From NCBI GenBank assembly GCA_903889905.1, contig CAISZI010000040.1, positions 64,148 through 128,147 on the forward strand: a stretch of DNA of 64,000 nucleotides, read 5' to 3'. This document shows positions 2,899 through 49,883 of this stretch, in pieces; within the stretch, counting starts at the first letter, position 1; every line of letters starts with the position of its first letter. The notes under the pieces were generated by a model that saw only the letters and a program-made list of their open reading frames with translations, was not told where the DNA came from and did not search any database. The stretch comes from Candidatus Wirthbacteria bacterium (lineage in GTDB: Bacteria > Patescibacteriota > CG2-30-54-11). The position numbers and the translations under genes were made by a program.

Positions 2899-4227
2899 TT
2901 GAATATAGGAAAAAACATGATTAACATCTACAAATGGTCGGATACCGACCCCAAAATCAAACAAAAAATCATGCAGCGGGCCATGGTGGATATTGGTGAA
3001 ATTCGCGATTACGTGGCTGGCTGGATGGACAAAGTGCGAAATGAAGGCGACACGGCCATCGTGGAATATGTGCGGCAGTTTGACAAAAAGGATTTTGAAC
3101 TTGGCGAGTTGGTTGTGTCACAGGCGGAAATCAAAGCGGCTTATAACAGGGTTGACCCGCGCGTTATTGCCGCAATTCGCAAACAAATTGCCATCTCGAC
3201 CAAGGTGGCCGAGGAGCGTTTGCGTAAACCGTTTGAGCTCAAAGAACTGACACCGGGTGTCCAGACGGGTTACAAAATCACACCTATCGACGCGGTGGGC
3301 CTCACCGTTCCAGCCGGGCAAGTGCCACTTCCGACCGTAATGCAAATCCTGGCTGTGAATGCCAAAGTGGCTGGTGTACCGCGGGTTGTGGCTTGCTTTC
3401 CGCCCACAGGGGATTATCCCGAAATGTTGATTGCTGCCGATATTGCCGGCGTGGATGAAATTTACCGCGTTGGTGGAATTGCCGGCATTGCGGCCATGAC
3501 CTATGGCACCAAGACGATCAAACCGGTGTTGAAAATTTTTGGTCCTGGCAGTAAATACACACAGGCAGCCAAACTGCTGGCGTTTGGCAAAGTAAATATC
3601 GATATGGTGGCTGGGCCGTCAGAAGCGTTGATCCTGGCTGATGAAAGTGCCAATCCTGCTTATTGTGCTGCTGACATACTGGCACGCGCCGAGCATTCGC
3701 CGGATGCCTGTGGCGTATTAGTGACGACGTCAGCCGCCTTGGCTTTGGCAACAAAGGACGAGATCGAAAAGCAGTTTGGGTTGCTCAAAAGGCAGGAAAT
3801 CATCAGGCAGTCTTTGGCAATGTATTCGGCCATCATTGTCGTCGCAACGTGGGACGAAGCGATTGAGCTCACAAACGAATACAGTCCCGAGCACCTGGAA
3901 ATCATGACCCGGGAACCGCTTCAGCTTTTGGACAAAATCCGCAATGCCGGTTCAATCTTTTTGGGCGACTATGCACCGGTCGCGGTCGGAGATTATGCCA
4001 GCGGTACCAGCCACATATTGCCGACCGGCCACTGGGCCAAAATGGCGTCAGCGGCTAGTGTCGAGACTTTTCAGAAAATATCGGAAGTGCAATTGTTGAC
4101 CAGAGTTGGTTTGGAGAACCTTGCCGATGTGGTGGATGTGATTGCGGATGTGGAAAGTTTGGACGCGCACTGGAATTCGGTCAATCAGCGGCTCAAGAAA
4201 CCAAGGAGAATGCGCGATGAAACTTGA
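2899..4227 (+). CDS. hisD: Histidinol dehydrogenase
   Basis: The 442 aa product is collinear with HisD (..GPGSKYTQAAK.., ..SPEHLEI.., GDYASGTSHILPT). Confidence 0.9.
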   Translation: MNIGKNMINIYKWSDTDPKIKQKIMQRAMVDIGEIRDYVAGWMDKVRNEGDTAIVEYVRQFDKKDFELGELVVSQAEIKAAYNRVDPRVIAAIRKQIAISTKVAEERLRKPFELKELTPGVQTGYKITPIDAVGLTVPAGQVPLPTVMQILAVNAKVAGVPRVVACFPPTGDYPEMLIAADIAGVDEIYRVGGIAGIAAMTYGTKTIKPVLKIFGPGSKYTQAAKLLAFGKVNIDMVAGPSEALILADESANPAYCAADILARAEHSPDACGVLVTTSAALALATKDEIEKQFGLLKRQEIIRQSLAMYSAIIVVATWDEAIELTNEYSPEHLEIMTREPLQLLDKIRNAGSIFLGDYAPVAVGDYASGTSHILPTGHWAKMASAASVETFQKISEVQLLTRVGLENLADVVDVIADVESLDAHWNSVNQRLKKPRRMRDET

Positions 4228-4882
4228 AGAACTGGTCAAACAATACAAGCTTAAAGCTGTTTGCTGCGACATGGATGGGGTGTTGATTGATTCTTTGGGA
4301 TTGGATCTAAAAGTCGTTAATGTCCTGTTGCGAGAAATTGGCTTGTCGCCGATTGCAGTGGCATTTATTAAAGCCAATTTTGCCCTCAGCGTGACGGATT
4401 TTTGGACAGCGATATTGGTTGAAATTGGTTGCAAGCCGAGTAATCCTTTCTTACCGCAAGTTGTAGACAGTTACAACGCAGTCAGACGCAAGGAAAAGAT
4501 CGAACTGCTGCCGCTGGTTAGGACATTCCTGGAGCAGACAAAGAAACTGGGGTTGGCGGCGACCGTCGTCTCCAACAATGCGGACGAAGAAGTGAAACAG
4601 ATTTTGCTGAAAAGTGGTATAAAGCCATATTTTGGATTTGTCATCGGAAACACACAAATCGATTACCGCAAGCCAGCGCCTGATTGTTATTTGCTGGCGG
4701 CCAAAAAACTCAAAGTGGAACCGCTGCATTGTCTTGTCATCGAAGATTCTGTGATTGGGTTGCAGGCTGCCAGAGCGGCTGGAATCGGTTGCGTCCTTGG
4801 CGTAGCAACAGGTGGTGAAAGCCTTGAGGCACTCGGAATTTACGCTGATCTGGTGATAAATGATTTAGGAGAATTGTTATGA
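4217..4882 (+). CDS. HAD-superfamily hydrolase (beta-phosphoglucomutase-like subfamily IA); candidate histidinol-phosphate phosphatase by operon context
   Basis: Taking the start at ATG 4217 (AAGGAG upstream), the N-terminus is MKLEELVKQYKLKAVCCDMDGVLIDS, which carries the HAD motif I DxDGxL. The C-terminal part has ..EDSVIGLQAARAAG.. Its start overlaps the hisD stop by 11 nt. Confidence 0.7.
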   Translation: MKLEELVKQYKLKAVCCDMDGVLIDSLGLDLKVVNVLLREIGLSPIAVAFIKANFALSVTDFWTAILVEIGCKPSNPFLPQVVDSYNAVRRKEKIELLPLVRTFLEQTKKLGLAATVVSNNADEEVKQILLKSGIKPYFGFVIGNTQIDYRKPAPDCYLLAAKKLKVEPLHCLVIEDSVIGLQAARAAGIGCVLGVATGGESLEALGIYADLVINDLGELL

Positions 4883-6207
4883 ACGCTCAATTGGGTGGCG
4901 ATGGCAAAATAGAAACCAATAATCAACCCCTGAGTTTATTCGAGATCCAAACCATGGCCAAAAGCGACAAAGCGCAGGCCGAAGTCGAGTTGCTGGCGGC
5001 ACTGCAAGTCATCTTCTGCGACCTGGCGATCGCAAGCGTCCGTATCAACCAGAGCGCTGTCTCCCTCAATTCCATCAACGGCATTGTCGTCATCGCGGGC
5101 GTGGAATACTTTTTCAAATTCCATTCCGAAGAAGGCGAAGAACAAACCATGCAGGAATATTATCGCAGCGAGCTCCTTAGCGAGGCAGGTTATGCAGTGA
5201 TGATGCCGGTTTATAAATCGACAGAAAGTGGCAAACAAATATTGATTTATCCCAAAGTGGACGCTCCGACGCTGTTTCAAGCCATGGACCAGATGGATCG
5301 CGGGTATTTGGTGGAGGGCAAATATCCAGAAGGATCTGAGCAGTTGTTACAAGCGGAACGGGAAGCGGATCGCCGTAAAGTTGAGGTTTTGTTGCGGACG
5401 CTTAAACTGGCTCCTGCCGCGGCCGTGGCGGCAGAAGGCATTAATCAATTGTTTTATGTGCGGCTCGCGGATAAAAGGACCACACCGCGCGTTGACCTGT
5501 TTTATCGGGACAAGGCCGTGCGGTTACCCGATGGCGGCGAAATCGGGTTCAATCAGCTGAGCCAGCTAAAATGGGTAATCAATGGCGTGGCCTATGACGA
5601 AACACTGGAGGATCTGATCCAAACCGCGACAGGGCTGCTTGATCCGCTGAGACTGGCAGAGTATCCGGTCGTTACGGCGCACGGCGATGATCACAATGGC
5701 AATAAATTTGTGACGCCAGAAGGACTGATTTACCTGGATCCCGCTTTTGCCGGTATGTATCAATACGCGCTCTTGAGCCAGGTCAAAACGACCTTTCACG
5801 ACACCCTGGCGCACCCATTGTGGTTATATAATCCGCAAGATTTTGCGGTGCAGCTTGAGCTGAAGATTGAGGATGGAATGGTTCGGATGGATAACGATTT
5901 CAACTGGCAAAAGGTAGCACCACTACGCGAGCAAATGTTGCAGATCAAGCTTGAGGAAATCTGGATTCCTCTGTTGCGAGAGCTGAAAAAGCGTGGTTGG
6001 TTAGAAGAGAATTGGGAGAACTATCTGCGCAAAGCACTTTTTGCCTGTCCGTTTCTGGTTTACAACCTGATTGATAATGCGCGCTATACAACGGATAAAT
6101 CGCTTTTTGCGTTGGCGCAAGCGGTCCGGATGGGCAGCAAATCCAAAAGTGGAATGATGGAGCCGTTTTTAGAAAAATTACGAACAGCCATTGAGGCATC
6201 GCCATGA
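4879..6207 (+). CDS. Kinase-like (aminoglycoside phosphotransferase / choline-kinase fold) protein embedded in the his operon
   Basis: VTAHGDDHNGNKF matches the APH catalytic HGDxHxGN motif, and LIYLDPAFAG looks like the metal-binding D-loop. Its start overlaps the HAD stop as ATGA, and its stop overlaps the hisC start. Confidence 0.55.
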   Translation: MNAQLGGDGKIETNNQPLSLFEIQTMAKSDKAQAEVELLAALQVIFCDLAIASVRINQSAVSLNSINGIVVIAGVEYFFKFHSEEGEEQTMQEYYRSELLSEAGYAVMMPVYKSTESGKQILIYPKVDAPTLFQAMDQMDRGYLVEGKYPEGSEQLLQAEREADRRKVEVLLRTLKLAPAAAVAAEGINQLFYVRLADKRTTPRVDLFYRDKAVRLPDGGEIGFNQLSQLKWVINGVAYDETLEDLIQTATGLLDPLRLAEYPVVTAHGDDHNGNKFVTPEGLIYLDPAFAGMYQYALLSQVKTTFHDTLAHPLWLYNPQDFAVQLELKIEDGMVRMDNDFNWQKVAPLREQMLQIKLEEIWIPLLRELKKRGWLEENWENYLRKALFACPFLVYNLIDNARYTTDKSLFALAQAVRMGSKSKSGMMEPFLEKLRTAIEASP

Positions 6208-7289
6208 ATGTAAACAAATTCATTAATCCCTGGATCTTGCAGCTCAAGTCCATTGACTGGGGCAAGTCAGTTCCTCAACGCGGTATACGACTCAACTTTG
6301 GTGAAAACCCAATTGCCTTTGAGCCAGCTTTGCAAGCCATTCGTGCTGAAGCCAGCAACGTGAACCGGTATCCGGAGGTCGATAAATCCAAAGAATACCA
6401 CTTGCTGGCCGATTATTGTGGCGTTAAACCCGATCAGGTCATAATGACGAATGCAGGCGATGATGCCATCGAAATGATTGCCCGGGTTTTCCTTGGCCCT
6501 GGAGATATGGCGCTGGCGGTCATTCCGAGCTATCCGTGTTACGCGGCAGCAACAGAAGTGGTGGGCGCATCGTTGGTTACGATGGAACTGGGGGCGCAAT
6601 TTCAGCTTGATGTCAGCGCATTGATCGAAACCGCTAAGCGTAATAAGGCAAAAGTAATCTGGATCGCCAATCCCAATAATCCAACCGGGAATCTTTTGCT
6701 TGATCTGGCACAGATTGGTCAAATTGCCCGTTCGGTCGATGCCATGCTGATCCTGGACGAGGCCTATTTTGAATTTTCGGAATTTAGTGCCGTTGGCTTG
6801 ATCAACAACAATCCCAATCTTGTCATTGTTCGAACTTTCAGCAAGGCTTATGGGCTGGCTGGTTTGTCGTTTGGTTACCTTTTGGGCAATCAGGAAACTA
6901 TCCAGTGCATGCGCCATCTGCAGGATGGTCCACAAATCTTCAGCGTCAACCGTTTGGCAAGGGCAGCGGCCAGGGCTGTATTGGAGAATCCAAACGCGGC
7001 GCAAGCTTTTGTCGATTCATTCAAATCTGCCAAGCGTCATATGGAAATGGGGTTGGCGCAAATACCGGGGATTGAAGTACTCCCAGGAGTGACAAGCTTT
7101 TCTGTATTGAGGCTGACAACCATGACTGCAAGTCAGTTCAAAAACAAGCTGGCCCAACAAGCTATATTCATTAAAGATTTAAGTATTTACAATGGGGTCA
7201 AGGACAACTTGATATATATGGGCATTCCAGCCCTTAATGACCAGCAAACGGTTTTAAGGGAAATAAAATCAATTCTGGAGGGAAAATAA
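6204..7289 (+). CDS. hisC: Histidinol-phosphate aminotransferase
   Basis: TFSKAYGLAGLSFGY is the PLP-lysine motif of class II aminotransferases / HisC. Confidence 0.85.
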   Translation: MNVNKFINPWILQLKSIDWGKSVPQRGIRLNFGENPIAFEPALQAIRAEASNVNRYPEVDKSKEYHLLADYCGVKPDQVIMTNAGDDAIEMIARVFLGPGDMALAVIPSYPCYAAATEVVGASLVTMELGAQFQLDVSALIETAKRNKAKVIWIANPNNPTGNLLLDLAQIGQIARSVDAMLILDEAYFEFSEFSAVGLINNNPNLVIVRTFSKAYGLAGLSFGYLLGNQETIQCMRHLQDGPQIFSVNRLARAAARAVLENPNAAQAFVDSFKSAKRHMEMGLAQIPGIEVLPGVTSFSVLRLTTMTASQFKNKLAQQAIFIKDLSIYNGVKDNLIYMGIPALNDQQTVLREIKSILEGK

Positions 7290-8020
7290 TGATCATCCTT
7301 CCTGCCATCGACATCCTGAACGGCAAATGTGTGCGACTTACCCGCGGCAATTTTCAGGACTCGAGGGTTTACTCAGTGAGTCCGCTGGAGGTGGCGGCCG
7401 AATTAAAATCCCTGGGCGCCACCTGGCTGCACCTGGTTGATCTGGATGGTGCGCGGCGTGGCAGCAGTTCTAATGGTCAGTTGATTCAGGAAATCGTGTC
7501 ATCGACGGGTCTCAAAATTGAGCTGGGTGGCGGCATCCGGACGCGTGAGGTGATAGAAGAGTGGCTCCAGCTCGGCATTGAACGTGTTATCCTCGGCACA
7601 ACGGCAGTGCAAAATCCAGATTTTGTGGTTGATGCAGTTCAGACTTTTGGGGCAGATCGTGTGGCTGTCGGCCTGGATTTCAAAGATCAAAAACTCGCCA
7701 TCAAAGGCTGGCTCCAAAACGTTGCAATTAATTGGAAAAAGTTGGTAGAGAAGTATGTAGAGGCCAATGTGACCAATTTTGTTGTGACCGATACTGGCCG
7801 GGATGGCATGTTGGAAGGACTAAATTGGCGCTTAATTGAAGAATTCTTAAAACTGCTTAAGCCTGACAATCTAGTCGCTTCCGGCGGAGTAAGTTCGCTT
7901 TCGGATTTGTCACGAGCGCAGGAACTGGGGTTGCAGGGTATCGTGGTTGGTAAGGCCTGGTATGAAGGTAAAGTGGACCTGGGCGAGGCGTTTCGATTGT
8001 ATGGCCAGGAGGAAAAGTGA
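7289..8020 (+). CDS. hisA: Phosphoribosylformimino-AICAR-ribotide isomerase
   Basis: MIILPAIDILNGKCVRLTRG... is the HisA N-terminus and the protein has the TIM-barrel HisA/HisF fold. Its start overlaps the hisC stop. Confidence 0.88.
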   Translation: MIILPAIDILNGKCVRLTRGNFQDSRVYSVSPLEVAAELKSLGATWLHLVDLDGARRGSSSNGQLIQEIVSSTGLKIELGGGIRTREVIEEWLQLGIERVILGTTAVQNPDFVVDAVQTFGADRVAVGLDFKDQKLAIKGWLQNVAINWKKLVEKYVEANVTNFVVTDTGRDGMLEGLNWRLIEEFLKLLKPDNLVASGGVSSLSDLSRAQELGLQGIVVGKAWYEGKVDLGEAFRLYGQEEK

Positions 8021-8661
8021 TCACGATCGTGGACTATGGCGCGGGAAATCTGACGTCGGTGAAGTGGGCGGTGGAAGAGTTGGGTTTTGAGGTGGAGGTG
8101 ACGGCTGATCCATTGCGCATTCTTGGCGCCGCCAAAGTCATCTTCCCCGGCGTCGGCGCGGCTGGACAGGCGATGGAAGAACTGGCGAAGCGCGGCTTGA
8201 TCGAATCGATTCGTGCAGTAGTTGCCAAGGGGACGCCCTTTTTGGGAATTTGCCTGGGGATGCAGATTTTGTTTGACTGGAGCGACGAAGATGGCGGGAT
8301 CAAATGCCTCGGTTTGCTCGCAGGTAAAGTGAAACGGTTTGATTTTGGCTCGAATTTAGCGCAGTTAAAAGTTCCGCACATGGGTTGGAATCAGGTACGA
8401 CAAACGGGTTTGGAAGCCAGCGGGCTATGGCAGGGAATTGGTAACGAAAGCAATTTCTACTTCGTGCATTCGTTTTATTGTGAGCCAGTGGACAAAGCAT
8501 TGGTGATCGGCGAAACAGAATACGGCGGTGTGTTTACCGCGGCAGTACAGCAAAAAAATGTCATTGCCACGCAGTTTCACCCGGAAAAAAGTGGTAGAGT
8601 GGGTTTACGGTTTTTGCAGAATTTTTGCCAAGGAGATTATGGTGGCCGTTTTACTCGATGA
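8017..8661 (+). CDS. hisH: Imidazole glycerol phosphate synthase, glutamine amidotransferase subunit
   Basis: MITIVDYGAGNLTSV...GICLGMQ...FHPEKS carries the class I GATase catalytic triad motifs. It uses a GTG start that overlaps the hisA stop. Confidence 0.88.
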   Translation: MITIVDYGAGNLTSVKWAVEELGFEVEVTADPLRILGAAKVIFPGVGAAGQAMEELAKRGLIESIRAVVAKGTPFLGICLGMQILFDWSDEDGGIKCLGLLAGKVKRFDFGSNLAQLKVPHMGWNQVRQTGLEASGLWQGIGNESNFYFVHSFYCEPVDKALVIGETEYGGVFTAAVQQKNVIATQFHPEKSGRVGLRFLQNFCQGDYGGRFTR

Positions 8662-9835
8662 CGGGCGCTTTGAACTGGATCGACCCTGGTGGTATTGGAT
8701 CAAATGCCGGATGGACAATCCGATCAGGTGGTTTGGAACCCGCAGTGTCGCGGGATTCTATTGGGATGCCTGGCGGTATGGTTTGCGGCCCTGGCAGCAG
8801 GTAATCGGGATCACGCCGGAACATAAGCGATGCGAAGATCTGACGCCTGCAACTGGAGCATGGTACGCAAGGCTGGATTTGGTACAAGTCCAAAAAAATG
8901 CCGAGCGAGCCATGCTCGTGATCGAGGAAAATCTAGCCCAGGTGAGGAATGCTGGTCAGGTTGATGCCGGTTTGGTGTGGTTTTTGGCTGGGGCACGACC
9001 AACTACCAGTAGCCCTGGCAATTGGGATCAACTCTGGCTACAAAAAATGGGGAACCCTGATTTATGGATGTGCCTTCCCAGCCTGTTTGGCCTTCGTTAT
9101 TTTTCCTATCTGTTCAATCGTGACCTTTGCTCCCACATTCTCAGTTCCCAGCAAGTGGCTTTGGCCCCATACAGGAAGACAACTGTCGAACAAACGGTGG
9201 CGGACCTTCTGGCCGAGGATCCCTCGGATTATGACAAATTCGATCGATTGACGGATAGAGAAACTGGCTATTCGATGCCCTATGTTGGCGATCGGACCAA
9301 AAGCATGACCATATATGGTGCCCGGCAATTGCTAGTGGGCGCCAGTCCCGTCGAAGTGACAGTTTCTCGGGAACGTTATATCGAAGAGAAATCGCCATTG
9401 AATGTTTTCATTCGATTACAGATCTTGCTTGCGATTCGTACCGTTTCCGGACCAGCGTTTCGCTGGAGTTGGCGAGAGAACAAGAATTTCGATGCCATTG
9501 AATTTAAAAATGACGTTGAAAAACAGTACTGGCAGGAAGTTGAGACGGCAGTGCGGCAGGGAATACCGGCTAAATTTCCCTGGGTCACCCAGGACATGAT
9601 CTCGGCCGTGTGGAGAACTTGCCATGGGTTTGCCGACAGTTCACTCGGCAATTATGAGATCGCGGGTTGGGGGTTTTATGGTGACAAGGAACAAATCGGC
9701 AAAACGGAATTCGAACGTTTTTTGGCCGATAAACTCGAACCGATTTATCGCGAGCTGCAGATGGAGGAATGGGTCAATACCATGAAGAATAGAATCTTCA
9801 AATCTCAGGAAGGTAAACCCAAACAGCGTGATTAA
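8639..9835 (+). CDS. Trp-rich hypothetical protein X1 of an unrecognised family; paralogue of X2; embedded between hisH and hisF
   Basis: ATG 8639 has AAGGAG upstream. The product begins MVAVLLDDGRFELDRPWWYWI... and shares blocks with X2 (DRPWW, FLAGARP, GxPDL, KxYWxE, WVTxxMxxAxWxTxHGFxDxSLxxYxIAG). It overlaps the end of hisH by 23 nt. Confidence 0.65.
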   Translation: MVAVLLDDGRFELDRPWWYWIKCRMDNPIRWFGTRSVAGFYWDAWRYGLRPWQQVIGITPEHKRCEDLTPATGAWYARLDLVQVQKNAERAMLVIEENLAQVRNAGQVDAGLVWFLAGARPTTSSPGNWDQLWLQKMGNPDLWMCLPSLFGLRYFSYLFNRDLCSHILSSQQVALAPYRKTTVEQTVADLLAEDPSDYDKFDRLTDRETGYSMPYVGDRTKSMTIYGARQLLVGASPVEVTVSRERYIEEKSPLNVFIRLQILLAIRTVSGPAFRWSWRENKNFDAIEFKNDVEKQYWQEVETAVRQGIPAKFPWVTQDMISAVWRTCHGFADSSLGNYEIAGWGFYGDKEQIGKTEFERFLADKLEPIYRELQMEEWVNTMKNRIFKSQEGKPKQRD

Positions 9836-9920
9836 TTTGTTCGTTGTTGACGCAGCCCGGTAGAGTAATTGGTCTGGTAGAAGGTAAATACTGAATTTAT
9901 CAACTTTGGCAGAGGACAAA

Positions 9921-11093
9921 ATGGCGGTAATCTGGGAAAATGAGCGTTTTGTCTATGATCGGCCGTGGTGGTTTGGGATACAGCAGCGATGGAAGCATTT
10001 GCCCAAAATATTTGGGGGCCGCGGTTACCTGGACAATGTCTGGCTTGCCTATCAATCCGGCATGCGTCCCTGGCCACTTTGGTGCAGTACTGCCAAAGTG
10101 CCACGTGGGTGGGATGAAATCGTCGTGACGCAAACGCCCTGGTACACAACGATCGACCTCAAACAGGTTGAAAGCAAGGCCAGGCAGATGATGCAATTGA
10201 TCGCAAGGAAGGCATTATCAGCAGACTATTTCTGGACTGTCAGTGAGGAACTAATCTGGTTTCTGGCCGGCGCACGACCTGCCATGTACGGGTTTGCCCG
10301 GAGTCAATTGCAATGGTTGAAATTAGCGGGTGACCCTGATTTATGTCATGCACTGGATTCCATGTTTTGTGCTCATTCCAGCTCACTTTTGATCAATCGT
10401 CGCCTCGGCGGTTTGATCATTGCCGCGCATCCAGAGATCTATCAACCATGGCGATGTTCAAGTGTGGAGAAGACGATTGACAGGGTTCTGAGCCAAAGTG
10501 TCAATTCCGGCATAGTGAGAGGCCGTTTGAGTGAGAAAAGCAGCAAGCTGTCATTGCCATTCAGCGCCAACCGTTATCAACGGGATGCCATATCCTTAGC
10601 CAAGGAGCTACTCTTGGGAAAATGTCCGGAACATCTCCGGGCGATACAGGACCGTTTGTTACCAAAGCGAACGCCGGAGTATGCTTTTGTTGATTATTTG
10701 ATCAATCAGGCGATTCAATCGTGTTCGGATGATGCACGCATCTGGTGGTCATCCATGGGGAGGGATTTTGGTCAAATACAATTCAAACGCGAGACTGAAA
10801 AAAAGTACTGGGAAGAAATTCAGGCGGCAGTCGAAGCAAAAGCCGTTGCCAGGACAGCCTGGGTAACCAGGGAAATGGTCTATGCTATCTGGAAAACGAC
10901 GCACGGTTTCGTGGATAGGAGTTTGACGTATTATGACATTGCTGGTGTGCGTTGCTATGGTGTGACTGATCTGGTTGGCAAAACCGCTCTGGATCGCTGG
11001 ATGAGTCAGGAGTTGGATGTTCTTGGCCAAAAAATTGGGTTGCAGGAGTGGGTAACGGCGGTACAGATGAACATTAAAGACAGGGACAAATAA
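9921..11093 (+). CDS. Trp-rich hypothetical protein X2 (tandem paralogue of X1)
   Basis: The ORF is 9906-11093, but ATG 9921 (GAGGA upstream; MAVIWENERFVYDRPWWFGI) aligns with the X1 N-terminus. I estimate roughly 30% identity to X1 across the whole length. It ends immediately before the hisF start at 11094. Confidence 0.65.
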   Translation: MAVIWENERFVYDRPWWFGIQQRWKHLPKIFGGRGYLDNVWLAYQSGMRPWPLWCSTAKVPRGWDEIVVTQTPWYTTIDLKQVESKARQMMQLIARKALSADYFWTVSEELIWFLAGARPAMYGFARSQLQWLKLAGDPDLCHALDSMFCAHSSSLLINRRLGGLIIAAHPEIYQPWRCSSVEKTIDRVLSQSVNSGIVRGRLSEKSSKLSLPFSANRYQRDAISLAKELLLGKCPEHLRAIQDRLLPKRTPEYAFVDYLINQAIQSCSDDARIWWSSMGRDFGQIQFKRETEKKYWEEIQAAVEAKAVARTAWVTREMVYAIWKTTHGFVDRSLTYYDIAGVRCYGVTDLVGKTALDRWMSQELDVLGQKIGLQEWVTAVQMNIKDRDK

Positions 11094-11874: not shown

Positions 11875-11909
11875 GTCATTGCGAGCCATGCAGCATGGCT
11901 CGCAATGAC
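11875..11909. repeat. Perfect palindrome GTCATTGCGAGCCATGC-A-GCATGGCTCGCAATGAC (17-bp arms) between hisF and hisIE; same termini as the MITE/REP-like family
   Basis: Read directly. It sits 8 nt after the hisF stop and 12 nt before the hisIE start. Confidence 0.8.
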
Positions 11910-12616: not shown

Positions 12617-15418
12617 ATGGAAGATACGATTTTTGCCTCGGGAACGTTCTGGTTGATCAGTTTGCTGGTCGTAACCACGGTTTGGATCGTGCTGACGCTG
12701 CTGCGGCAGTCACGCATTCGCAAAATTAACACGCCCACCGTGGTGCTCGCGCTTTCAGTCCCCAAAAATAACGAAAAATCACCCCTCTCGGCTGAACAGT
12801 TGTTTGCTTCCCTGCATGGCTTGCATCGCAAGCATTTTCAGGCGCTGACGTATGGCCAGGTCAATATCTCACTGGAGATTCTGGCCCAAAAAGGCGCCAT
12901 CCGGTTTTATGTGACGGTACCCGAAAATCAGCAAAAATACATCTGCAACCAGATTTACGCCCAGTATCCGGATGTCAAAATCGAACCAGTGGATGACTAT
13001 GCCAAGGTCTATGATCTGAGTGTGATTGAACGCGAAGCGGCGGGGGCCAATATTGTGCTGAACCGGCCGTTCGTTTATCCGATCCGTACGTTTCAGAATT
13101 TTGACGTCGACCCGCTGGCATCCATGACCTCAGCCTTGTCTAACCTCGATGAAGGCAATGAAGTCTGGGTGCAAATGGTACTCCGGCCAGTCGGCAACAG
13201 CTGGCACGCGCGGGCGCACCACTTTGTCGGTCAACTGCGCAATGGCAAGCAGGGATTTTTGGGCAGTGTGTTGATCAATTTGATTCGTGAAATTGTCCAT
13301 ATAATTTTCATCGGCATTCCACGTGCGTTACTTTTTAATAAAGCGGGACTGGAATCCGGACCAGGCAGTGAAACTAAGATTAGTGACGCTGATTCGGCTG
13401 CTCTTAAATTGATTGAAGAAAAAACGACAAAGCTGGGGTTCGCGGTTAATTTGAGAATTCTCAGCATCGCGCCGACGCGAGAAGCGGCCACCACGCATGT
13501 GCAGCAGTTTATCTCGACCTTGCAGCAGTTCAATCAGCCCAATGCCAACGGGTTTCGCATGGGCCGACGTATCCTGAGCATGGGTAATTTCAAGGAAAAG
13601 TACAAAAACCGCCGTTCCAAAGGTTCCAGCATTATCATGAATACCGAAGAACTGGCGTCGTTTTATCACTTGCCCAACCAAATGGTGACGACACCGACGA
13701 TTGTCTGGTCGCGCGCGCGCAAAGGCGAACCACCGCCCAATTTGCCCATTACCACACCCGATGGCGACAACCGTAATTTGACGATTTTTGCCAAAACTGA
13801 CTTTCGGCACGAGGAACGCAAATTCGGTATCAAACAGCTTGACCGCCTGCGGCATACGTATGTGATTGGAAAAACCGGCATGGGTAAATCCACGATGCTG
13901 GCCAACATGGCAATTGACGACATCCGTTCTGGGCGTGGCGTGGCGGTGATTGACCCGCATGGCGACCTAATCGAAACCGTGCTGGATTACATTCCCAATA
14001 AACGCGTCAACGACGTAGTGATGTTTAACCCGGCAGACCGGCATTTCCCGGTGGCACTCAATATGCTCGAATCAGTCAACGACGAGTTCAAAGGCCTGGT
14101 GGCGTCGGGTTTGATCGCGGTTTTTTATAAAATGTATGAAAACAGCTGGGGCCCGCGCATGGAGCATATTTTGCGCAATTCCATCCTGGCGCTACTGGAT
14201 TCGCCCAATTCGACGCTGCTTGGGATTCCGCGCATGCTGGTGGACAAGGATTATCGCAATTCTGTGACGCGAAACATTACCAACCCGACTGTCGGCATGT
14301 TTTGGGAAAGTGAATTTCCCAAAATTGAAACCAGCCGTACGGCAGCCGAATCGCTAGGTGCAGTGCAGAACAAAATGGGTCAGTTCCTGAGCGCGCCGAT
14401 CGTGCGCAACATCGTGGGCCAGCCCAAAAGTACGATCGACATCCGCAGCATCATGGACGAAGGTAAAATTCTGCTGGTCAACCTGTCCAAAGGGTTGATC
14501 GGCGAAGATGTCAGCGCCCTGATGGGTGCCATGATGATCACCAAAGTTCAACTCGCCGCCATGTCGCGGTCGGATGTGCCTGAGGAGAAGCGTGTGCCGT
14601 TCTATATGTACGTTGACGAATTTCAAAACTTTGCCACCAGCAGCTTTGCCACGATTTTGTCCGAAGCACGCAAATACAAACTTGGTCTCACCATGGCCAA
14701 CCAGTACATCAGCCAAATGCCCGAAGATGTTCGCGCCGCCGTGTTTGGCAACGTGGGCACGTTGATCACCTTTTCCATTGGTGCCAGTGACGCGCCATTT
14801 ATTGCCAAGGAATTCATGCCGGTTTTTGATGACAACGACGTTATCCATTTGGACAAATACAACATTTATCTGCGCCTCACCGTTGATGGCCGCAATACTG
14901 AACCTTTTAGCGCCACGACGTTGCCGTTGCCAATCAACAAAAGCAACGCCCGGGACAAAATTTTGCGTGTCACGCGTGAACGCTACAGCAAACCGGTGGA
15001 CAAGGTTGAAGAAAAAATTGAACAAATGGTGGGTTTTCACCAGCTCAAACAAGGGGAATCGGAAAAAGTTGCGCCGGACACCAAAAAAATTGTTGCTGCC
15101 TCACTCAAACCGGCGGTTCCAGCTCCAGCTACCGCCAAGCCAGCGGCTGTCGCTGTGATCAGTCCTCGTGCCAGCAATCCTGCCATGCAAGGCGGAAATG
15201 CCAAAATTCCACAACCCGGCGCGACAGCAATTGCTATCCCAAATGCACCCGTAACTTCACCCCAATCGACTCCAAATCCAGCACCTCCCGCCAATCATCA
15301 GGACAATGCCCGCGCCTCCATTGCTCAAGCTGCCACCCAGGTAGCCGCCAATCAGCGTGAGCGTAACCGTTTGAATCGCAACAAACCACAACCTCCGCCA
15401 CTAGGGCCAAAAGGTTAG
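12617..15418 (+). CDS. Membrane-anchored FtsK/HerA-superfamily P-loop ATPase of the TraG/VirD4/VirB4-like (DUF87-type) group; probable DNA-translocation / type IV secretion-like ATPase; Pro/Ala-rich C-terminal tail
   Basis: There is an N-terminal TM helix (FWLISLLVVTTVWIVLTLL). Walker A is VIGKTGMGKST, there is a VIDPHGDL motif, and Walker B is FYMYVDEFQNFA. The last ~130 aa are low-complexity and rich in P/A/T. Confidence 0.65.
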   Translation: MEDTIFASGTFWLISLLVVTTVWIVLTLLRQSRIRKINTPTVVLALSVPKNNEKSPLSAEQLFASLHGLHRKHFQALTYGQVNISLEILAQKGAIRFYVTVPENQQKYICNQIYAQYPDVKIEPVDDYAKVYDLSVIEREAAGANIVLNRPFVYPIRTFQNFDVDPLASMTSALSNLDEGNEVWVQMVLRPVGNSWHARAHHFVGQLRNGKQGFLGSVLINLIREIVHIIFIGIPRALLFNKAGLESGPGSETKISDADSAALKLIEEKTTKLGFAVNLRILSIAPTREAATTHVQQFISTLQQFNQPNANGFRMGRRILSMGNFKEKYKNRRSKGSSIIMNTEELASFYHLPNQMVTTPTIVWSRARKGEPPPNLPITTPDGDNRNLTIFAKTDFRHEERKFGIKQLDRLRHTYVIGKTGMGKSTMLANMAIDDIRSGRGVAVIDPHGDLIETVLDYIPNKRVNDVVMFNPADRHFPVALNMLESVNDEFKGLVASGLIAVFYKMYENSWGPRMEHILRNSILALLDSPNSTLLGIPRMLVDKDYRNSVTRNITNPTVGMFWESEFPKIETSRTAAESLGAVQNKMGQFLSAPIVRNIVGQPKSTIDIRSIMDEGKILLVNLSKGLIGEDVSALMGAMMITKVQLAAMSRSDVPEEKRVPFYMYVDEFQNFATSSFATILSEARKYKLGLTMANQYISQMPEDVRAAVFGNVGTLITFSIGASDAPFIAKEFMPVFDDNDVIHLDKYNIYLRLTVDGRNTEPFSATTLPLPINKSNARDKILRVTRERYSKPVDKVEEKIEQMVGFHQLKQGESEKVAPDTKKIVAASLKPAVPAPATAKPAAVAVISPRASNPAMQGGNAKIPQPGATAIAIPNAPVTSPQSTPNPAPPANHQDNARASIAQAATQVAANQRERNRLNRNKPQPPPLGPKG

Positions 15419-24939: not shown

Positions 24940-25422
24940 ATGAAAAGCTGCCTTTTTTTTGTCGCAGTATTTGCACTGATCTTACTGGTTGGGTTGGAAA
25001 TATTTGGTTTGGTGCTAATGCACACCCCAGCGCCAATGATGAAAGATTCACTGGGTGTCTATGATACCCCTGAACACGCTTTGGATACGTATATCGCAGC
25101 CCGTAATGCCAAGGACTATTTGCATTTCCTTGAGTGTCAGGGTCAGGACACCAACGTCGATATAACTCCCAAAATCAGCGCTGACATGGTGCTTTGGGGC
25201 AGTATTAACAATTATTCTGTCAGCAATATTGAGCGGCATCAGGACATGGCCAGGGTTACGGTCACACAGGACTTTGTTTCCGATGGTGGGAATTCATTTC
25301 CAGGCCAAAAGGTGGATTATTATTTTAACAATCAATCTGGCCGCTGGATTTATCTGCCCTCAGGCATGAAACAAACCGTGCTTTGGCTAAGGGCGAGCGT
25401 TATGGGAATTGTGTTCAAATGA
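24940..25422 (+). CDS. Small membrane/secreted hypothetical protein
   Basis: There is an N-terminal hydrophobic helix (LFFVAVFALILLVGLEIFGLVL) and no recognisable domain. Its stop overlaps the next start as ATGA. Confidence 0.45.
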   Translation: MKSCLFFVAVFALILLVGLEIFGLVLMHTPAPMMKDSLGVYDTPEHALDTYIAARNAKDYLHFLECQGQDTNVDITPKISADMVLWGSINNYSVSNIERHQDMARVTVTQDFVSDGGNSFPGQKVDYYFNNQSGRWIYLPSGMKQTVLWLRASVMGIVFK

Positions 25423-26348
25423 ATGCTGCAGAAAAGGCTGTATTGCAGCTTGTTGTTTATTATGATTTGTTTGAGCAGACGCTCAGTTTGTACGAATTAT
25501 GGCAACTGCTGCCGCCGCTTGGGGCTTGGAATGCCGATTTTCAGGCTTTTGTGGCAGCTTTCCAGCTAAGTGAAACGCTGCGTGAGCGGCTGACGATGTG
25601 CGGTGATTATGTAGTGCTCACCGGACGTGAGCAACTGATTGAGCTGCGCTTAAGCATGGCGCCGGTCAAGCACAAACTTTGGCGCCGCGCGCAGTGGATG
25701 ACTCAGATTGTGCGGTTGATCCCCTTTGTGCGGATGGTTGGGGTTTCGGGTTCACTGGCGCAGGAAAGCGCGAAAGCAGATAGCGATATTGATTTTTTTA
25801 TCATTGCCCAGTCCGGTTATATCTGGTGGGTACGTTTCTGGAGCAAACTGATCCTCAAGTTGACACGGCTGGATCGTAGCCCCAGGCAAACAGGGGGACA
25901 TTTTTGTTACAACCATTACGTCACCACTCAAAGTCTGAGACTGGATAGCCAGTCGGAATATGTGGCGCGGCTTTTTTGCCACCTGGTACCGGTGTATGGC
26001 TTTGCGACCTATCGCGACTTTTGCGCGGCCAATACCTGGATCGCGCTCTACGTGGAAAGGTTTCCTGTTTATCATTTTCCGGAATTCGATATCCTGACTG
26101 ACCATGGCCTGCCAGCGGCAGTCAAAAAAGGATGGGAAAAAATGTTGCGTGGTAAATTGGGCAAAAAGTTTGAACAATGGTTAAAAACAGTGCAACTGAG
26201 ACGTATCCTTAGCGATGACCGGCGGCTCTCGCCTGGATCCCAGGTGGTGACAGAGGATGATTTATTGCGCTTTCACCTTGAAGCCAAAGAACCATTGGTC
26301 GCGGCACATTATGCGCAGAGACTTGCCGAGCTCGGGCTAAATTGTTAA
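25419..26348 (+). CDS. Pol-beta-superfamily nucleotidyltransferase-fold protein of unknown function
   Basis: GVSGSLAQESAKADSDIDFFII matches the NTase signature G[SG]x9-13DxD. It has an N-terminal ~110 aa helical region and a C-terminal ~170 aa region of unknown fold. The start at ATG 25419 is preferred over the TTG 25383 of the ORF track. Confidence 0.55.
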   Translation: MNAAEKAVLQLVVYYDLFEQTLSLYELWQLLPPLGAWNADFQAFVAAFQLSETLRERLTMCGDYVVLTGREQLIELRLSMAPVKHKLWRRAQWMTQIVRLIPFVRMVGVSGSLAQESAKADSDIDFFIIAQSGYIWWVRFWSKLILKLTRLDRSPRQTGGHFCYNHYVTTQSLRLDSQSEYVARLFCHLVPVYGFATYRDFCAANTWIALYVERFPVYHFPEFDILTDHGLPAAVKKGWEKMLRGKLGKKFEQWLKTVQLRRILSDDRRLSPGSQVVTEDDLLRFHLEAKEPLVAAHYAQRLAELGLNC

Positions 26349-31717: not shown

Positions 31718-32197
31718 ATGCGTTGTCCCAGTTGCAGTCATCCAGATACCAAAGTTGTGGATTCCAGAGATCTGGAAGAAGAAATTTCCATTCGCAGACG
31801 TCGTGAATGCATCAAGTGTGGCTATCGCTTTACCACGTTTGAACGCGTTGAAATGGCCAATCTGGTTGTGATCAAAAAAGACAAACGGCGAGAACCCTAC
31901 CTGCGTGAAAAAATGGAAAAAGGGATTTTGCGCGCTGCCGAAAAGCGTCCAATCACATCAGAAACCATTAATGAACTGATCACGCACATTGAGTCCGAGC
32001 TGCGGGGTATGTCGACCAATGAGCTTACCAGCAAGCAGATTGGCGCCATTGTCATGAAGCACCTCAAAAAAATCGACAAAGTCGCCTATATCCGTTATGC
32101 CTCGGTATATAAGGAATTCGAAGATCTGGACTCGCTGGAGGAAGAGTTGCACAAACTCCTGCGTCAACGCAAGGAAAAAAATCCCAGGGCTATTTAG
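31718..32197 (+). CDS. nrdR: Transcriptional repressor NrdR (zinc ribbon plus ATP-cone)
   Basis: MRCPSCSHPDTKVVDSRD...CIKCGYRFTTFERVE is the NrdR N-terminus. It is embedded in the longer ORF 31436-32197. Confidence 0.9.
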   Translation: MRCPSCSHPDTKVVDSRDLEEEISIRRRRECIKCGYRFTTFERVEMANLVVIKKDKRREPYLREKMEKGILRAAEKRPITSETINELITHIESELRGMSTNELTSKQIGAIVMKHLKKIDKVAYIRYASVYKEFEDLDSLEEELHKLLRQRKEKNPRAI

Positions 32198-33284
32198 TTG
32201 CTTTGAGTTTAGTCTCCAGTCCGGTGATTTTGTCCAGAAAATCCTGGTATCCAAACCAGCGATACTGGCTGTAGAAATTATCAAACATGAACAGGTCTTT
32301 GGTACCGATCACCATGTAGATCAGCGCTTTGTGGTCGGGAAGTGCACTGTCTGGAATTTGGATGCTGCTTAAATCCGACAGTTTTCCTTTGTCTTCACCC
32401 GTTTGCGGTTCCATCAGGTAACTGTGTTGTAAAAAAGTGACAATATTTGCTGAGTTTGTCAGCGGCGTGGACGAAAATCCCATCAAACAATGGCCAACAA
32501 GATTGGTTGCTTTGGCTTTGGCATCCACCAAATCGCCTGGCAAAGTACCGCAAACCACGGCGTGATAGCCAATCGCAGTGTCCATGGCGACACTCTGTGT
32601 GTTGGGTGAAACAACGTCTCCGGCAAACGTGACAGGGGTATCCGTACCGGGATGTTTTTGTAACGCTTCGTATGAAATGTTTGTAGCTTTGTGCTGGCGG
32701 CAATAGTTCTCGGCATTGTTGAGTTCAGCATTAAAAAGCAGTGAAAAGTCTTCGCAGTCGCCCGCTTTGCGTTGCAGAAAAGCGGCAATGTCCTGGAGCT
32801 GGTCAGTACGGTTTAGGTTGGCCTGATCAGTTTTGTAAATAAAACCCGCCTGCTGATTTTGGTAAGTGAGACATTCGAGCTTGATGGCACAGTCATTACC
32901 CTGAACCTGGACACAGTTTACGGTAATGGACTGGTTGAGTTTGGTAAAAGTGGGTTTGCCAGCAGTCGTCGCGTTGTTTTGAAACCATTTGAGGGCGTCG
33001 CTGATCTGGTTTTGATACTGGTCCAAAGTGGAAAAAGTGCTTTGGATATCCTTGGATAATGTCGCGTTCTGCTGGTTGAGGGAGGCGTTGGCGTCGTCGA
33101 CTTTTTGCAGTTGCAGTTTCATGTCGGTGAGATGCTGGCTGAGCTGCTGCGAGTAATCGTTCAAGGCATAGCCCTGTGCAAGCAGAGGATCAATAATGCC
33201 GCGTTTGGTATAAACGACGAGACCGGCCAGCACCAGGGTGGTGATGGCAAAAATGACCAGGAAGGCGTTGCGAAGATAATTCAT
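32190..33284 (-). CDS. Membrane-anchored coiled-coil protein with a C-terminal transglutaminase-like cysteine-peptidase-fold domain (tentative)
   Basis: The TM helix is FLVIFAITTLVLAGLVVY. There is a Gln/Asn-rich coiled-coil region. KAGDCEDFSLLF ... GYHAVVCG ... DLVD resembles the Cys-His-Asp core of transglutaminase-like domains. The ORF extends to 33332; the internal Met at 33284 is the more likely start. Confidence 0.45.
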   Translation of the reverse strand: MNYLRNAFLVIFAITTLVLAGLVVYTKRGIIDPLLAQGYALNDYSQQLSQHLTDMKLQLQKVDDANASLNQQNATLSKDIQSTFSTLDQYQNQISDALKWFQNNATTAGKPTFTKLNQSITVNCVQVQGNDCAIKLECLTYQNQQAGFIYKTDQANLNRTDQLQDIAAFLQRKAGDCEDFSLLFNAELNNAENYCRQHKATNISYEALQKHPGTDTPVTFAGDVVSPNTQSVAMDTAIGYHAVVCGTLPGDLVDAKAKATNLVGHCLMGFSSTPLTNSANIVTFLQHSYLMEPQTGEDKGKLSDLSSIQIPDSALPDHKALIYMVIGTKDLFMFDNFYSQYRWFGYQDFLDKITGLETKLKATK

Positions 33285-33350
33285 GGAGATCTGGTGACTG
33301 AAAACTAAACGTTGCGGCTGATCGGGATCCACGCTGGGTACGCTGTAGGC

Positions 33351-45279: not shown

Positions 45280-46125
45280 ATGATCGAAACCAAAAAATTC
45301 AAAATAAAAAGAATGTCGCTATCTTGCCTGTTGGCGGGCCGGGCGATGATTTCTTTCCTGTTTCTTTTTTGGGGCACCGCCCTTGAGCGTCAAGGGCAGG
45401 CAAATGCTGATTTAATGTCTAAGGTATTGGCAATTTTTGGCAATCTACTGGTTGCCCTGGCCTGGTTCATTATATTTGATTCCATCAGGAATCTGCTGGT
45501 TGACACCAAATCCGCAATAGAATTTGGTCGAGATCAGATTATTATCAGTCAACGGCCATTTTTGACACTAAAATACAATCAGCTCATTGCCATCTATTTT
45601 GATTATCAGTTTGGTACGTTCGTCAATGGTAGGCACACCAATCTGTGGGAATGTTTGGCGCTTTTATACCGTCAGGATTACGGTCAAGGAATTGATTCCA
45701 GACTTATTGGTCAATATGACTATGATTTTGATGAACTGAAGCATGTGTTCACACAATTGCCACCAGCCATTAAAGTGTCACCCTATGTCCTTGCTCATTT
45801 TGACCATCCCAAAGAGACGACAGTGACACCAGAGGCGCAACTTGAACATAGTGAATTTCATAAATTATACGCTCCCCACATTACTGCCGAACAATTTGCC
45901 CTCGGATTGCTGCTGCTTCCACTTTTTCTGATTTTTGGCTTCAATGTTGGCATTACAGCCTTTACGAAGTATTTTCTACCATTCATTCCCCGTAATACTG
46001 TCTGGTTTCAGGCGTTAGCCATGGCGATTCCTTTTGTTTTTTGGAAAGGCATTTTCGATATTGATAAAATACTCAAAAACAGGAAGCTCATTAAACCGGA
46101 GAAAATAAGCCATGCAACTCAATGA
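45280..46125 (+). CDS. Polytopic membrane protein, hypothetical
   Basis: It has several hydrophobic helices and no recognisable motif. It overlaps the clpB start by 14 nt. Confidence 0.45.
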
Positions 46126-48845: not shown

Positions 48846-49883
48846 TTATTGACCCACTTTCAGATTGGTGACCGTGGAGGACAAGGGTTTGGAATTGAGT
48901 GCTGGAACCGTTTTAATCAGTTGGTCAAAGGTGTCGACACTGGCGGCATCGGTGGGCTGCAGCAGCAGGTCCGTGGTTTGCAGATTGGTGAAATTAATCT
49001 CCAGCCCAAGGTTGATATTATTGCTTGACGTGGTTGTTTTGGGCAGCGCGCTAAAAGTGATCTTTTTTAATGTATTGTCGGATTTGTTGACCCAGATCGA
49101 ACCGCTCAAGTTGAGCTCGGCAATTTGATTCTGGAGCACATGGAGATAATTTTGCTTGTCATCGTCGCTAAGCTGCGTGGTGCTGAGCTGGTTGACGAGC
49201 GCGGTGGCTGTCTGCGGATCAAGACCACTAAAAGTGTATTTGACGGTATCGATGTTGTCGATGGTTTCACTGCCGGTTTGGTTTAAATTCTGAAACAAAC
49301 TGCTCAGCTGGCGCGCCCCATTGGAATAAAGGGTGAAAAAATTAACCCAGGGCGATCCGACGGCGTTACTGACCGCATCATTGCTGATAATCTGGTTGGA
49401 GAGGGTGGTGTCGTATTTGACTGGCAGAAAAGGCAGAGCGGGGAGTGCCTGACTGGCAGAGGAATAAAACCATTTGCCCGCGACCGAATTGATGTCCAGT
49501 TTGGTGTAATCACTGCCTGTGTTTTGCACGGAAATATTACCGATTTTAAAGTAGGATTTGGCAGGTGTTGAGAGCAGCGTAAGTTCGCTGATCTGGTAGT
49601 TTTGATCAGCAGTTGAAACCGTACCACTTAGATCAACGCGTGTCATATCCTGGCCATTGAAGCTGAGAATGCCGTTGATCGAAGAGTGCAATTCCTGACC
49701 AGAAGCGTTCTGGGCCAGGTTTTTGACCTGGAGTGAAAATTTGGCCTGATTGCTTGGTGCCGCCAAAATGGTCTGATTGGTCGTATTCTTGGGGTTCAGG
49801 TTGGTCATCGCCCACCAGGCAAAAGCACCGATCACGGCGACAAACAGGACGATCAGCGCCGATAATTTGGTTTTGGTATTCAT
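48846..49883 (-). CDS. Membrane-anchored, Asn/Ser/Thr-rich secreted hypothetical protein
   Basis: It has an N-terminal TM/signal anchor. Its composition is low-complexity N/S/T/Q-rich. No recognisable domain. Confidence 0.45.
   Translation of the reverse strand: MNTKTKLSALIVLFVAVIGAFAWWAMTNLNPKNTTNQTILAAPSNQAKFSLQVKNLAQNASGQELHSSINGILSFNGQDMTRVDLSGTVSTADQNYQISELTLLSTPAKSYFKIGNISVQNTGSDYTKLDINSVAGKWFYSSASQALPALPFLPVKYDTTLSNQIISNDAVSNAVGSPWVNFFTLYSNGARQLSSLFQNLNQTGSETIDNIDTVKYTFSGLDPQTATALVNQLSTTQLSDDDKQNYLHVLQNQIAELNLSGSIWVNKSDNTLKKITFSALPKTTTSSNNINLGLEINFTNLQTTDLLLQPTDAASVDTFDQLIKTVPALNSKPLSSTVTNLKVGQ

Follow-up and report, generated by a model that had tools for sequence, protein, structure and literature searches.

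Two genes of no recognized family separate hisH from hisF in the histidine operon of a Candidatus Wirthbacteria bacterium, and their position raises the question of whether they take part in histidine biosynthesis. The operon is encoded on a 64,000-nucleotide stretch of contig CAISZI010000040.1 (assembly GCA_903889905.1), here called the window, and the two genes are named X1 and X2. An original prediction, made from the DNA letters alone, had drawn attention to them. They are genuine, native protein-coding genes resulting from an old tandem duplication, and they look like a long-resident and co-regulated part of the operon, not a recent or selfish insertion. Concerning their role, the tentatively favored reading (rough probability 0.45) is that of an accessory peculiar to this lineage and produced when histidine is limiting; the step at which it most plausibly acts is that of the flanking HisH and HisF, the imidazoleglycerol phosphate (IGP) synthase.

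Gene limits and junctions of X1 and X2

The region between hisH and hisF contains the following elements:

8639-9835, + strand: X1, orphan Trp/Arg-rich, probably soluble protein of 398 amino acids (397 if the start is GTG 8642)
9836-9920, + strand: X1-X2 spacer of 85 nt, which carries the X2 Shine-Dalgarno sequence and no terminator
9921-11093, + strand: X2, paralog of X1, 390 amino acids, net charge +10

Both open reading frames (ORFs) lie on the + strand and extend from 8528 or 8639 to 9835 for X1 and from 9906 or 9921 to 11093 for X2. A perfect Shine-Dalgarno sequence (AAGGAG, 8630-8635) precedes X1, which can start at ATG 8639 or at GTG 8642, the latter being the public gene call of 397 amino acids; its stop is the TAA ending at 9835. 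X2 most likely starts at ATG 9921, behind the Shine-Dalgarno sequence AGAGGA (9911-9916), and the TTG at 9906 is disfavored because the deposited product has 390 amino acids. This start is the sole correction to the gene limits first proposed. The two junctions, on the contrary, are found at sequence level just as they had been described: the final 23 nt of hisH (stop TGA, 8659-8661) also belong to X1, and the TAA of X2 (11091-11093) abuts the ATG of hisF at 11094. The spacer has no significant RNA structure (fold z-score -1.35), and no terminator or good promoter was found within or around the X1/X2 region.

An old duplication kept at the protein level

In a BLASTP comparison, 120 of 385 residues of X1 and X2 are identical (31%) and 207 of 385 are positives (54%), with 0 gaps and E = 6e-72. 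The view of the two proteins as collinear paralogs with about 30% identity thus stands, and every block quoted in its support is present in both: DRPWW, GxPDL, FxxIxFKxxxEKxYWxE, WVTxxMxxAxWxTHGFxDxSLxxYxIAG and GKT, as well as WFLAGARP, which is identical at 8/8 positions. The nucleotide identity at codon positions 1, 2 and 3 is 0.50, 0.56 and 0.38 (second > first > third), and tblastx gives 9e-75 for the frame pair +1/+1, the next best pair being at 4e-12. This codon-position pattern, together with the frame specificity, indicates that the similarity reflects constraint at the protein level, as expected if the duplication is old and both copies were kept, which had also been proposed.

Tryptophan represents 4.8% of X1 and 5.1% of X2, compared with 0.3-2.5% in 12 neighboring genes, and 12 Trp positions are conserved between the two proteins. 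No transmembrane segment was detected in either of them (maximum 19-residue Kyte-Doolittle values of 1.39 and 0.89); composition and hydropathy therefore both agree with the original prediction. X1 contains three His residues and X2 six, one of which is conserved, and there is no conserved Cys. The conserved GKT is located ~40 residues from the C-terminus. Its spacing is G-x5-GKT in both proteins, and a regular-expression search for a Walker A motif (G-x4-G-K-[ST]) returned nothing; with this wrong spacing, P-loop nucleoside triphosphatases were rejected as a candidate family. Searches for internal repeats and CxxC motifs were negative. The metal-binding motif D.HH..E of imidazoleglycerol-phosphate dehydratase (IGPD), expected twice in a duplicated half-domain of ~195 amino acids, was likewise absent from X1 and X2 by regular expression. 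The two products are probably soluble, largely helical proteins rich in Trp and Arg.

Search for relatives

No match to X1 or X2 was obtained in Pfam (E<=10), NCBIfam (E<=0.1), PHROGs, PADLOC or the PDB sequence set. The profile matches that did appear, to an antibody chain at E=1.1 and to a Myb-like domain at E=0.34, were weak and were judged to be noise, and the best PHROG E-value was 0.069 over 29 residues. The IGPD family itself (PF00475 and the TIGR profile) gave no match in Pfam or NCBIfam. A word-indexed search of 5.8 billion protein clusters returned X1 itself only; as this search, of limited sensitivity, failed to find even X2, an exhaustive HMMER profile search was made over 1.84 billion representatives of ~15 billion proteins, and it recovered X1 and X2 only. 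Back-translated patterns were also run against GTDB genomes, IMG/VR and JGI metagenomes, and no relative was confirmed. The two-motif DNA pattern WW...WFLAGARP had 6 matches in metagenomes, all of them out-of-frame junk in GC-rich DNA, and these were discarded. With tblastn, no match was found among 50,697 phage and 72,556 plasmid records. AlphaFold2, run on the two-sequence alignment, produced an unusable model with a predicted local distance difference test (pLDDT) score of 34.

At the level of sequence, X1 and X2 are therefore a new and absolute orphan family to which nothing known is detectably related. The original prediction had called the family unrecognized, and in all searches X1 and X2 match only each other. 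It had also named a confident match to an unrelated phage or defense family as a result that would speak against it; such a match was looked for, and PHROGs, PADLOC and the phage and plasmid records hold none.

The isolation of the pair partly reflects the sampling of its lineage. The source lineage branches deeply and has been little sampled. The nearest SecA proteins, on two JGI contigs (L089 and L090), are 68% and 64% identical, and those from named groups (Peregrinibacteria, Patescibacteria, Firmicutes) ~50-54%. Both contigs share the DinG-SecA-M16 synteny with the window but hold no his operon.

Native status and long residence

The GC content, GC skew and third-codon-position GC (0.54) of X1 and X2 match those of the neighboring genes. 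Their synonymous codon usage falls inside the spread of the 34 window genes and is close to that of the other his genes. No inverted or direct repeats flanking the pair were found and, without such repeats or foreign composition, there is no sign of a transposable or insertion cassette. Taken with the negative PHROGs, PADLOC, phage and plasmid searches, these observations bear out the earlier remark that the placement is unlike that of a selfish insertion.

Histidine content points in the same direction. When the 34 window proteins are ranked by their His content, the nine poorest are HAD (a phosphatase of the operon), HisA, HisG, X1, HisC, Y (a further operon protein, described below), HisD, HisH and X2. 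On average, His makes up 1.11% of the his enzymes and 2.57% of the remaining proteins. X1 and X2 together contain 9 His in 788 residues, which is below the 2.57% background with a binomial P=0.004. Proteins of a biosynthetic pathway, made during scarcity, are depleted in the cognate amino acid (PMC4209129). By this signature, X1 and X2 have long been translated from a starvation-induced operon. A recent insertion is therefore excluded, although a role in histidine metabolism is not thereby proven.

The histidine operon and its leader

The genes of the operon are all on the + strand and tightly packed between 1.9 and 12.5 kb, in the order hisG, hisD, HAD, Y, hisC, hisA, hisH, X1, X2, hisF and hisIE. 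Besides X1 and X2, its features are:

1530-1867, + strand: probable T-box leader specific for tRNA-His (Rfam RF00230), with a ~100-nt insertion before the T-box sequence
1849-1895, + strand: intrinsic terminator of the T-box leader, a 20-bp stem followed by a T-run
1923-2786, + strand: hisG, long form with HisG_C domain (PF01634, PF08029, TIGR00070); Shine-Dalgarno sequence GGAG at 1913-1916
2899-4227, + strand: hisD (PF00815, E=2.5e-138)
4142-4882, + strand: HAD-IA phosphatase, presumed histidinol-phosphate phosphatase (PF13419, PF00702, partial TIGR01656 histidinol-phosphatase domain)
4879-6207, + strand: Y, predicted small-molecule-kinase fold, 442 amino acids, in the position of hisB (IGPD)
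6204-7289, + strand: hisC (PF00155, E=2e-41)
7289-8020, + strand: hisA (PF00977, E=2e-69), here upstream of hisH
8017-8661, + strand: hisH (PF00117), with ~8 extra C-terminal residues
11094-11867, + strand: hisF (PF00977, E=6e-76)
11875-11909, strand unassigned: perfect 17-bp inverted repeat GTCATTGCGAGCCATGC/GCATGGCTCGCAATGAC, covering the hisIE start codon
11895-12533, + strand: hisIE (PF01502, PF01503)

The leader aligns to the full Rfam model (positions 1-219) with 38.2 bits and E=5e-7; its score stays below the gathering threshold of 93, probably because of the ~100-nt insertion. The specifier loop, GAA-CAC-A, presents the His codon CAC, and the UGGG sequence matches the discriminator base C. 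The motifs AGCGA, GGUG and AAGUA are also present. Ahead of the leader, a promoter-like site is visible at 1488-1515 (11/12 match, with TG). For hisG, the ATG at 1923, behind the terminator, is a more probable start than 1884. As leader and promoter-like site both lie upstream and no terminator or convincing promoter occurs at X1/X2, we infer that the pair shares a transcript, and with it control by tRNA-His, with the his genes.

A short palindromic repeat with the core GTCATTGCGAGCC is confined to non-coding sites of the his operon. The insertion of the T-box leader contains one pair (1717-1729 and 1790-1802), the spacer between hisG and hisD a related copy of ~40 nt (2875-2887), and another copy is the inverted repeat at the hisIE start. 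It could be an element resembling repetitive extragenic palindromes or miniature inverted-repeat transposable elements, a hairpin for RNA stability or processing, or an operator.

Protein Y and the missing dehydratase

Without X1 and X2, the operon still encodes every histidine step except IGPD. A tblastn search with a genuine IGPD found none in the operon or in any frame of the window, nor in 12 loci (L081-L092) that surround Y homologs or belong to the two relatives identified by SecA. The same query was positive in 14/80 loci from a HisF-anchored scan of GTDB species representatives. In that scan, the best HisF was 63% identical (Poribacteria metagenome-assembled genomes) and no Y homolog was present. 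The original prediction had hinted that X1 and X2 might go together with an absence of hisB. IGPD is truly absent from the window, but the hisB slot is occupied by Y, and the seven other IGPD-less clusters with Y all lack X1 and X2, so that such a link is not supported. X1 and X2 were also compared with the Y family, and a relationship was rejected (hhalign probability 0.05).

Y has no Pfam match above threshold; the closest is APH (PF01636), which scores 13.1 bits (E=0.081) where the cut-off is 23.2. Its ~50 homologs are all without a family name. The AlphaFold2 model is of high confidence (pLDDT 93.4, predicted template-modeling score 0.91). A Foldseek search of the PDB with this model gave 31 matches at E<=1e-3, all of them kinases of one fold with probability 1.0, the TM-scores being modest (0.3-0.5). 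Among these are APH(9), methylthioribose kinase, choline, ethanolamine, homoserine and glucosamine kinases, and TvaE. Across 42 sequences, no variation is seen at K80, E93, H268-G-D270-x-H-N-x-N275 or D287. Y thus combines a bilobal kinase fold with the catalytic motifs of such enzymes, namely a Lys and Glu pair, the HxDxxxxN loop and a metal-binding Asp. Judged from its model, Y is a divergent family of small-molecule-kinase fold (APH, choline kinase, methylthioribose kinase).

These features lead us to see in Y a presumably active kinase and the strongest candidate to stand in for IGPD. It could phosphorylate a hydroxyl of imidazoleglycerol phosphate, and elimination of the phosphate would yield the enol and then imidazole acetol phosphate. 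That Y replaces the canonical enzyme through such an ATP-dependent phosphorylation and elimination is possible, if on balance doubtful. These genomes may carry a canonical IGPD at some other locus, which weighs against Y as the replacement.

Two homologous proteins (P0022 and P0176) are fusions of an N-terminal HAD and a C-terminal Y. Proteobacterial homologs of Y, ~38-41% identical, are found outside his operons. The one from Chelativorans sp. (GCA_031180965.1; L099, 10001-11311; 39% identity by tblastn) is located in a cluster resembling sugar or polyol catabolism, not a his operon. Its neighbors are a HisD-family dehydrogenase, a zinc-dependent alcohol dehydrogenase, a GntR regulator, an ATP-binding cassette transporter and an FGGY kinase. 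At L083 (10001-12292), the gene call for the homolog is a HisD-Y fusion whose quality is doubtful. The HisD-Y "fusion" P0048 was given little weight, with its odd linker, truncated HisD part and non-his context. Since Y homologs occur beside HisD-family enzymes, Y could be an alcohol or amino-alcohol kinase, acting for instance on histidinol.

According to the accessible part of a 2023 Protein Science article, the enzymes of histidine biosynthesis are homologous across life except at the histidinol-phosphate phosphatase step (PMC9798254). The GapMind 2026 preprint gives no alternative to hisB, and no description of an alternative IGPD was found in the literature. Conserved at the hisB position of several operons that lack IGPD, Y is a concrete candidate for a non-homologous IGPD and a more important lead than X1 and X2. 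If this is true, it matters for annotation, as such genomes would be miscalled histidine auxotrophs, and it bears on the design of herbicides and antibiotics directed at IGPD.

Related histidine loci

Eight genomic contexts of Y were read, of which seven are his gene clusters without IGPD:

L081: hisG-hisD-HAD-Y-hisH-hisA-hisF-hisIE
L084: hisG-hisC-hisD-HAD-Y-hisH-hisF-hisIE
L086: hisG-hisD-Y-hisH-hisA
L087: hisG-hisD-Y-HAD-hisH-hisA-hisF-hisI-hisE
L088: hisC-hisD-Y-HAD-hisH-hisF-hisI
L091: hisD-Y beside a divergent hisG-hisZ pair
L092: hisG-...-hisC-hisD-HAD-Y-hisH-hisA-...-hisF-hisIE

HAD and/or Y stand between hisD and hisH in 6/7 clusters, those that extend downstream. None of the seven contains an X1 or X2 homolog by tblastn. 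hisH directly precedes hisA or hisF in all six clusters that include it. The order hisH-hisA-hisF of L081, L087 and L092 differs from the hisA-hisH-X1-X2-hisF of the window, where X1 and X2 fill the usual slot of hisA. Furthermore, an alignment with HisH from five related operons shows ~8 extra C-terminal residues in the window protein (DYGGRFTR), encoded where the start of X1 overlaps. The altered gene order and the HisH tail are traces of an old rearrangement or insertion by which X1 and X2 were introduced. It has since been fully domesticated, as the Shine-Dalgarno sites, the coupled junctions, the native codon usage and the His depletion indicate.

In L092, a 195-residue Y1_Tnp-like ORF follows hisG (5721-6308). 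In the same locus, a 170-residue AAA_18 ORF lies between hisA and hisF (region 12654-13938), and hisF is seemingly split into pieces of 78 and 130 amino acids.

The regulation of these loci differs as well. The his operon of the window uses a probable T-box, whereas three Y-type loci have a small gene for a TrpR-family regulator next to hisG (L081, 6645-6908; L084, 2603-2890; L092, 4509-4802). It is placed directly upstream of hisG in L084 and L092, while in L081 it is divergent and heads a trp operon. These genes resemble the HisR regulators of Gram-positive bacteria, as far as the latter are described in the accessible part of PMC9413887.

Role of X1 and X2

In the favored reading, X1 and X2 would share a transcript with hisH and hisF, be coupled to both in translation, and be made when tRNA-His is uncharged. 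By analogy with other paralogous subunits, they may assemble into a pseudo-symmetric heteromer. A shared rigid fold and such an assembly are suggested by two adjacent paralogs of ~30% identity without an indel over 385 residues. The pair would then act under histidine limitation, near IGP synthase, as a non-core component. It is not expected to be a core enzyme, because the pathway is complete without it if Y fills the gap, and because related operons lack it. If any gene of the operon replaces IGPD, it would be Y and not X1 or X2. In a bolder reading, the pair would be a new two-subunit addition to the Y route in this lineage, with a part either in the HisH/HisF reaction or in the elimination. 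A direct biochemical role of the pair in the histidine pathway is unlikely.

Several points weigh against a histidine accessory. No homolog, domain or usable structure model (AlphaFold2 pLDDT 34) was found for X1 or X2, and the heteromer is an argument by analogy. A low His content is also expected in a passenger gene long translated from a starvation-induced mRNA. Finally, the closest sampled his operons, in which Y is 50-54% identical, do not have the X pair, so it is dispensable for the pathway there. Overall, the interpretation given in the original prediction stands as far as an orphan family, an old and retained duplication and a non-selfish character are concerned, and is not supported where it hints at a relation of the pair to the missing hisB.

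The alternative that survives best is a neutral or unrelated passenger, which landed in the slot between hisH and hisF when hisA moved upstream and has been riding on the transcription of the operon. This is conceivable, although we consider it rather doubtful. None of the related his operons without IGPD carries the pair, and the his operon of L092 also holds unrelated inserted ORFs (AAA_18 and Y1_Tnp-like). The his operons of Corynebacterium glutamicum hold non-his genes that can be deleted without effect (PMC3896937). The hisA-before-hisH order, which differs from that of the relatives, and the HisH tail lengthened by ~8 residues at the junction are also in agreement with an arrival of this kind. 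A mere passenger is less easily reconciled with the tight packing coupled to both neighbors, a His depletion equal to that of the his enzymes, native codon usage and the long maintenance of two copies. These four features argue for long residence and selection, with which an unrelated function is still compatible.

It is improbable that X1 and X2 supply the missing IGPD step, either as a new dehydratase or as a phosphate-eliminating lyase partner of the kinase Y. In favor of this reading, neither the operon nor the window contains IGPD. Dehydration by a kinase and a lyase has precedents, among them the class III/IV lanthipeptide kinase/lyase pairing, and a kinase fold of the TvaE type is among the Foldseek matches of Y. 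However, seven other IGPD-less clusters with Y have no X homolog, so X is not generally required. The two proteins, moreover, have no D.HH..E motif, one conserved His and no conserved Cys, and IGPD could be encoded elsewhere in the genome.

Even less credible is a remnant of a mobile, phage or defense element, for instance a toxin and immunity pair, captured in the operon. Orphan, fast-evolving gene pairs are often derived from the mobilome, and a gene for a VirD4/TraG-like coupling protein follows the operon (12617-15418). Against this stand the absence of any match in PHROGs, PADLOC, the 50,697 phage and 72,556 plasmid records (tblastn) and IMG/VR, the lack of flanking inverted or direct repeats, the native composition and codon usage, and the surrounding window, which is core chromosome (SecA, PheS, pentose-phosphate genes, ClpB, MetRS).

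A tryptophan gate, in which the 19-20 Trp codons per gene make translation of X1 and X2, and with it the coupled expression of hisF-hisIE, sensitive to the Trp supply, can practically be dismissed: Trp is 4-5 times enriched, the X2 stop abuts the hisF start and, in the accessible part of PMC3937554, Trp-rich proteins are proposed as sensors of Trp availability in Chlamydia, but 12 of the Trp are conserved inside conserved blocks, which indicates a structural role in a folded protein, and a device of two genes and 2.4 kb would be extravagant as an attenuator and has no comparative support.

X1 and X2 are clearly under selection and wired into one of the best-studied biosynthetic operons, and yet have no detectable relative among ~15 billion predicted proteins. 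Should they bind IGP synthase or modulate it, this textbook enzyme would have an accessory factor of a new kind.

Remainder of the window

The rest of the window is ordinary chromosome, with genes for DinG, SecA, PheS, MiaA, superoxide dismutase, the oxidative pentose-phosphate enzymes, ClpB, MetRS and PyrG. Directly after the his operon (12617-15418, + strand), a coupling ATPase of 933 amino acids is encoded, similar to VirD4, TraG and HerA. A membrane segment is present at its N-terminus, its long C-terminal tail is rich in Pro and Ala, and no other type IV secretion genes are nearby.

Four more ORFs of 281-380 amino acids are without a Pfam match (25383-26348, 32190-33332, 45280-46125 and 48846-49883). 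At least two of them appear to have same-sized counterparts, likewise without a Pfam match, on the SecA-related contig L090, by size and position alone (320 amino acids after SecA; 392 amino acids by CNNM). Unlike X1 and X2, these four ORFs appear to be shared within the lineage, if the correspondence holds.

Comparison with known systems

The enterobacterial bifunctional HisB, with an N-terminal HAD histidinol-phosphatase and a C-terminal IGPD, is a comparator for HAD and Y, not for X1 and X2. The HAD-Y pair, between hisD/hisC and hisH, occupies the position of hisB in the enterobacterial order hisGDCBHAFI, and the HAD(N)-Y(C) fusions parallel HisB. Y differs from the IGPD part of HisB in its predicted protein-kinase-like fold with intact ATP-site motifs, and it has no Mn-binding D.HH..E.

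ATP-dependent dehydration by phosphorylation and elimination is known from NAD(P)HX dehydratase, mevalonate-diphosphate decarboxylase and the kinase-lyase systems of lanthipeptides and thioamitides. For Y, these systems offer a mechanistic analogy, and such a reaction there is wholly conjectural.

LuxA and LuxB are adjacent paralogous subunits of a heterodimeric protein, with ~30% identity. X1 and X2 are alike in being tandem duplicates, collinear and ~30% identical, side by side in one operon. The likeness does not extend to a relationship in sequence or a demonstrated one in fold, and the association of X1 with X2 is only predicted.

In C. glutamicum, deletion of impA or cg2301 leaves histidine prototrophy intact (PMC3896937). 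Genes without an assigned role in the pathway lie among the canonical his genes of that organism, including between hisA and hisF, and are co-transcribed with them, as X1 and X2 would be in the window. Its inserts, however, belong to recognizable families (a major facilitator superfamily permease and an inositol monophosphatase), whereas X1 and X2 are a paralogous pair without a family, packed against both neighbors.

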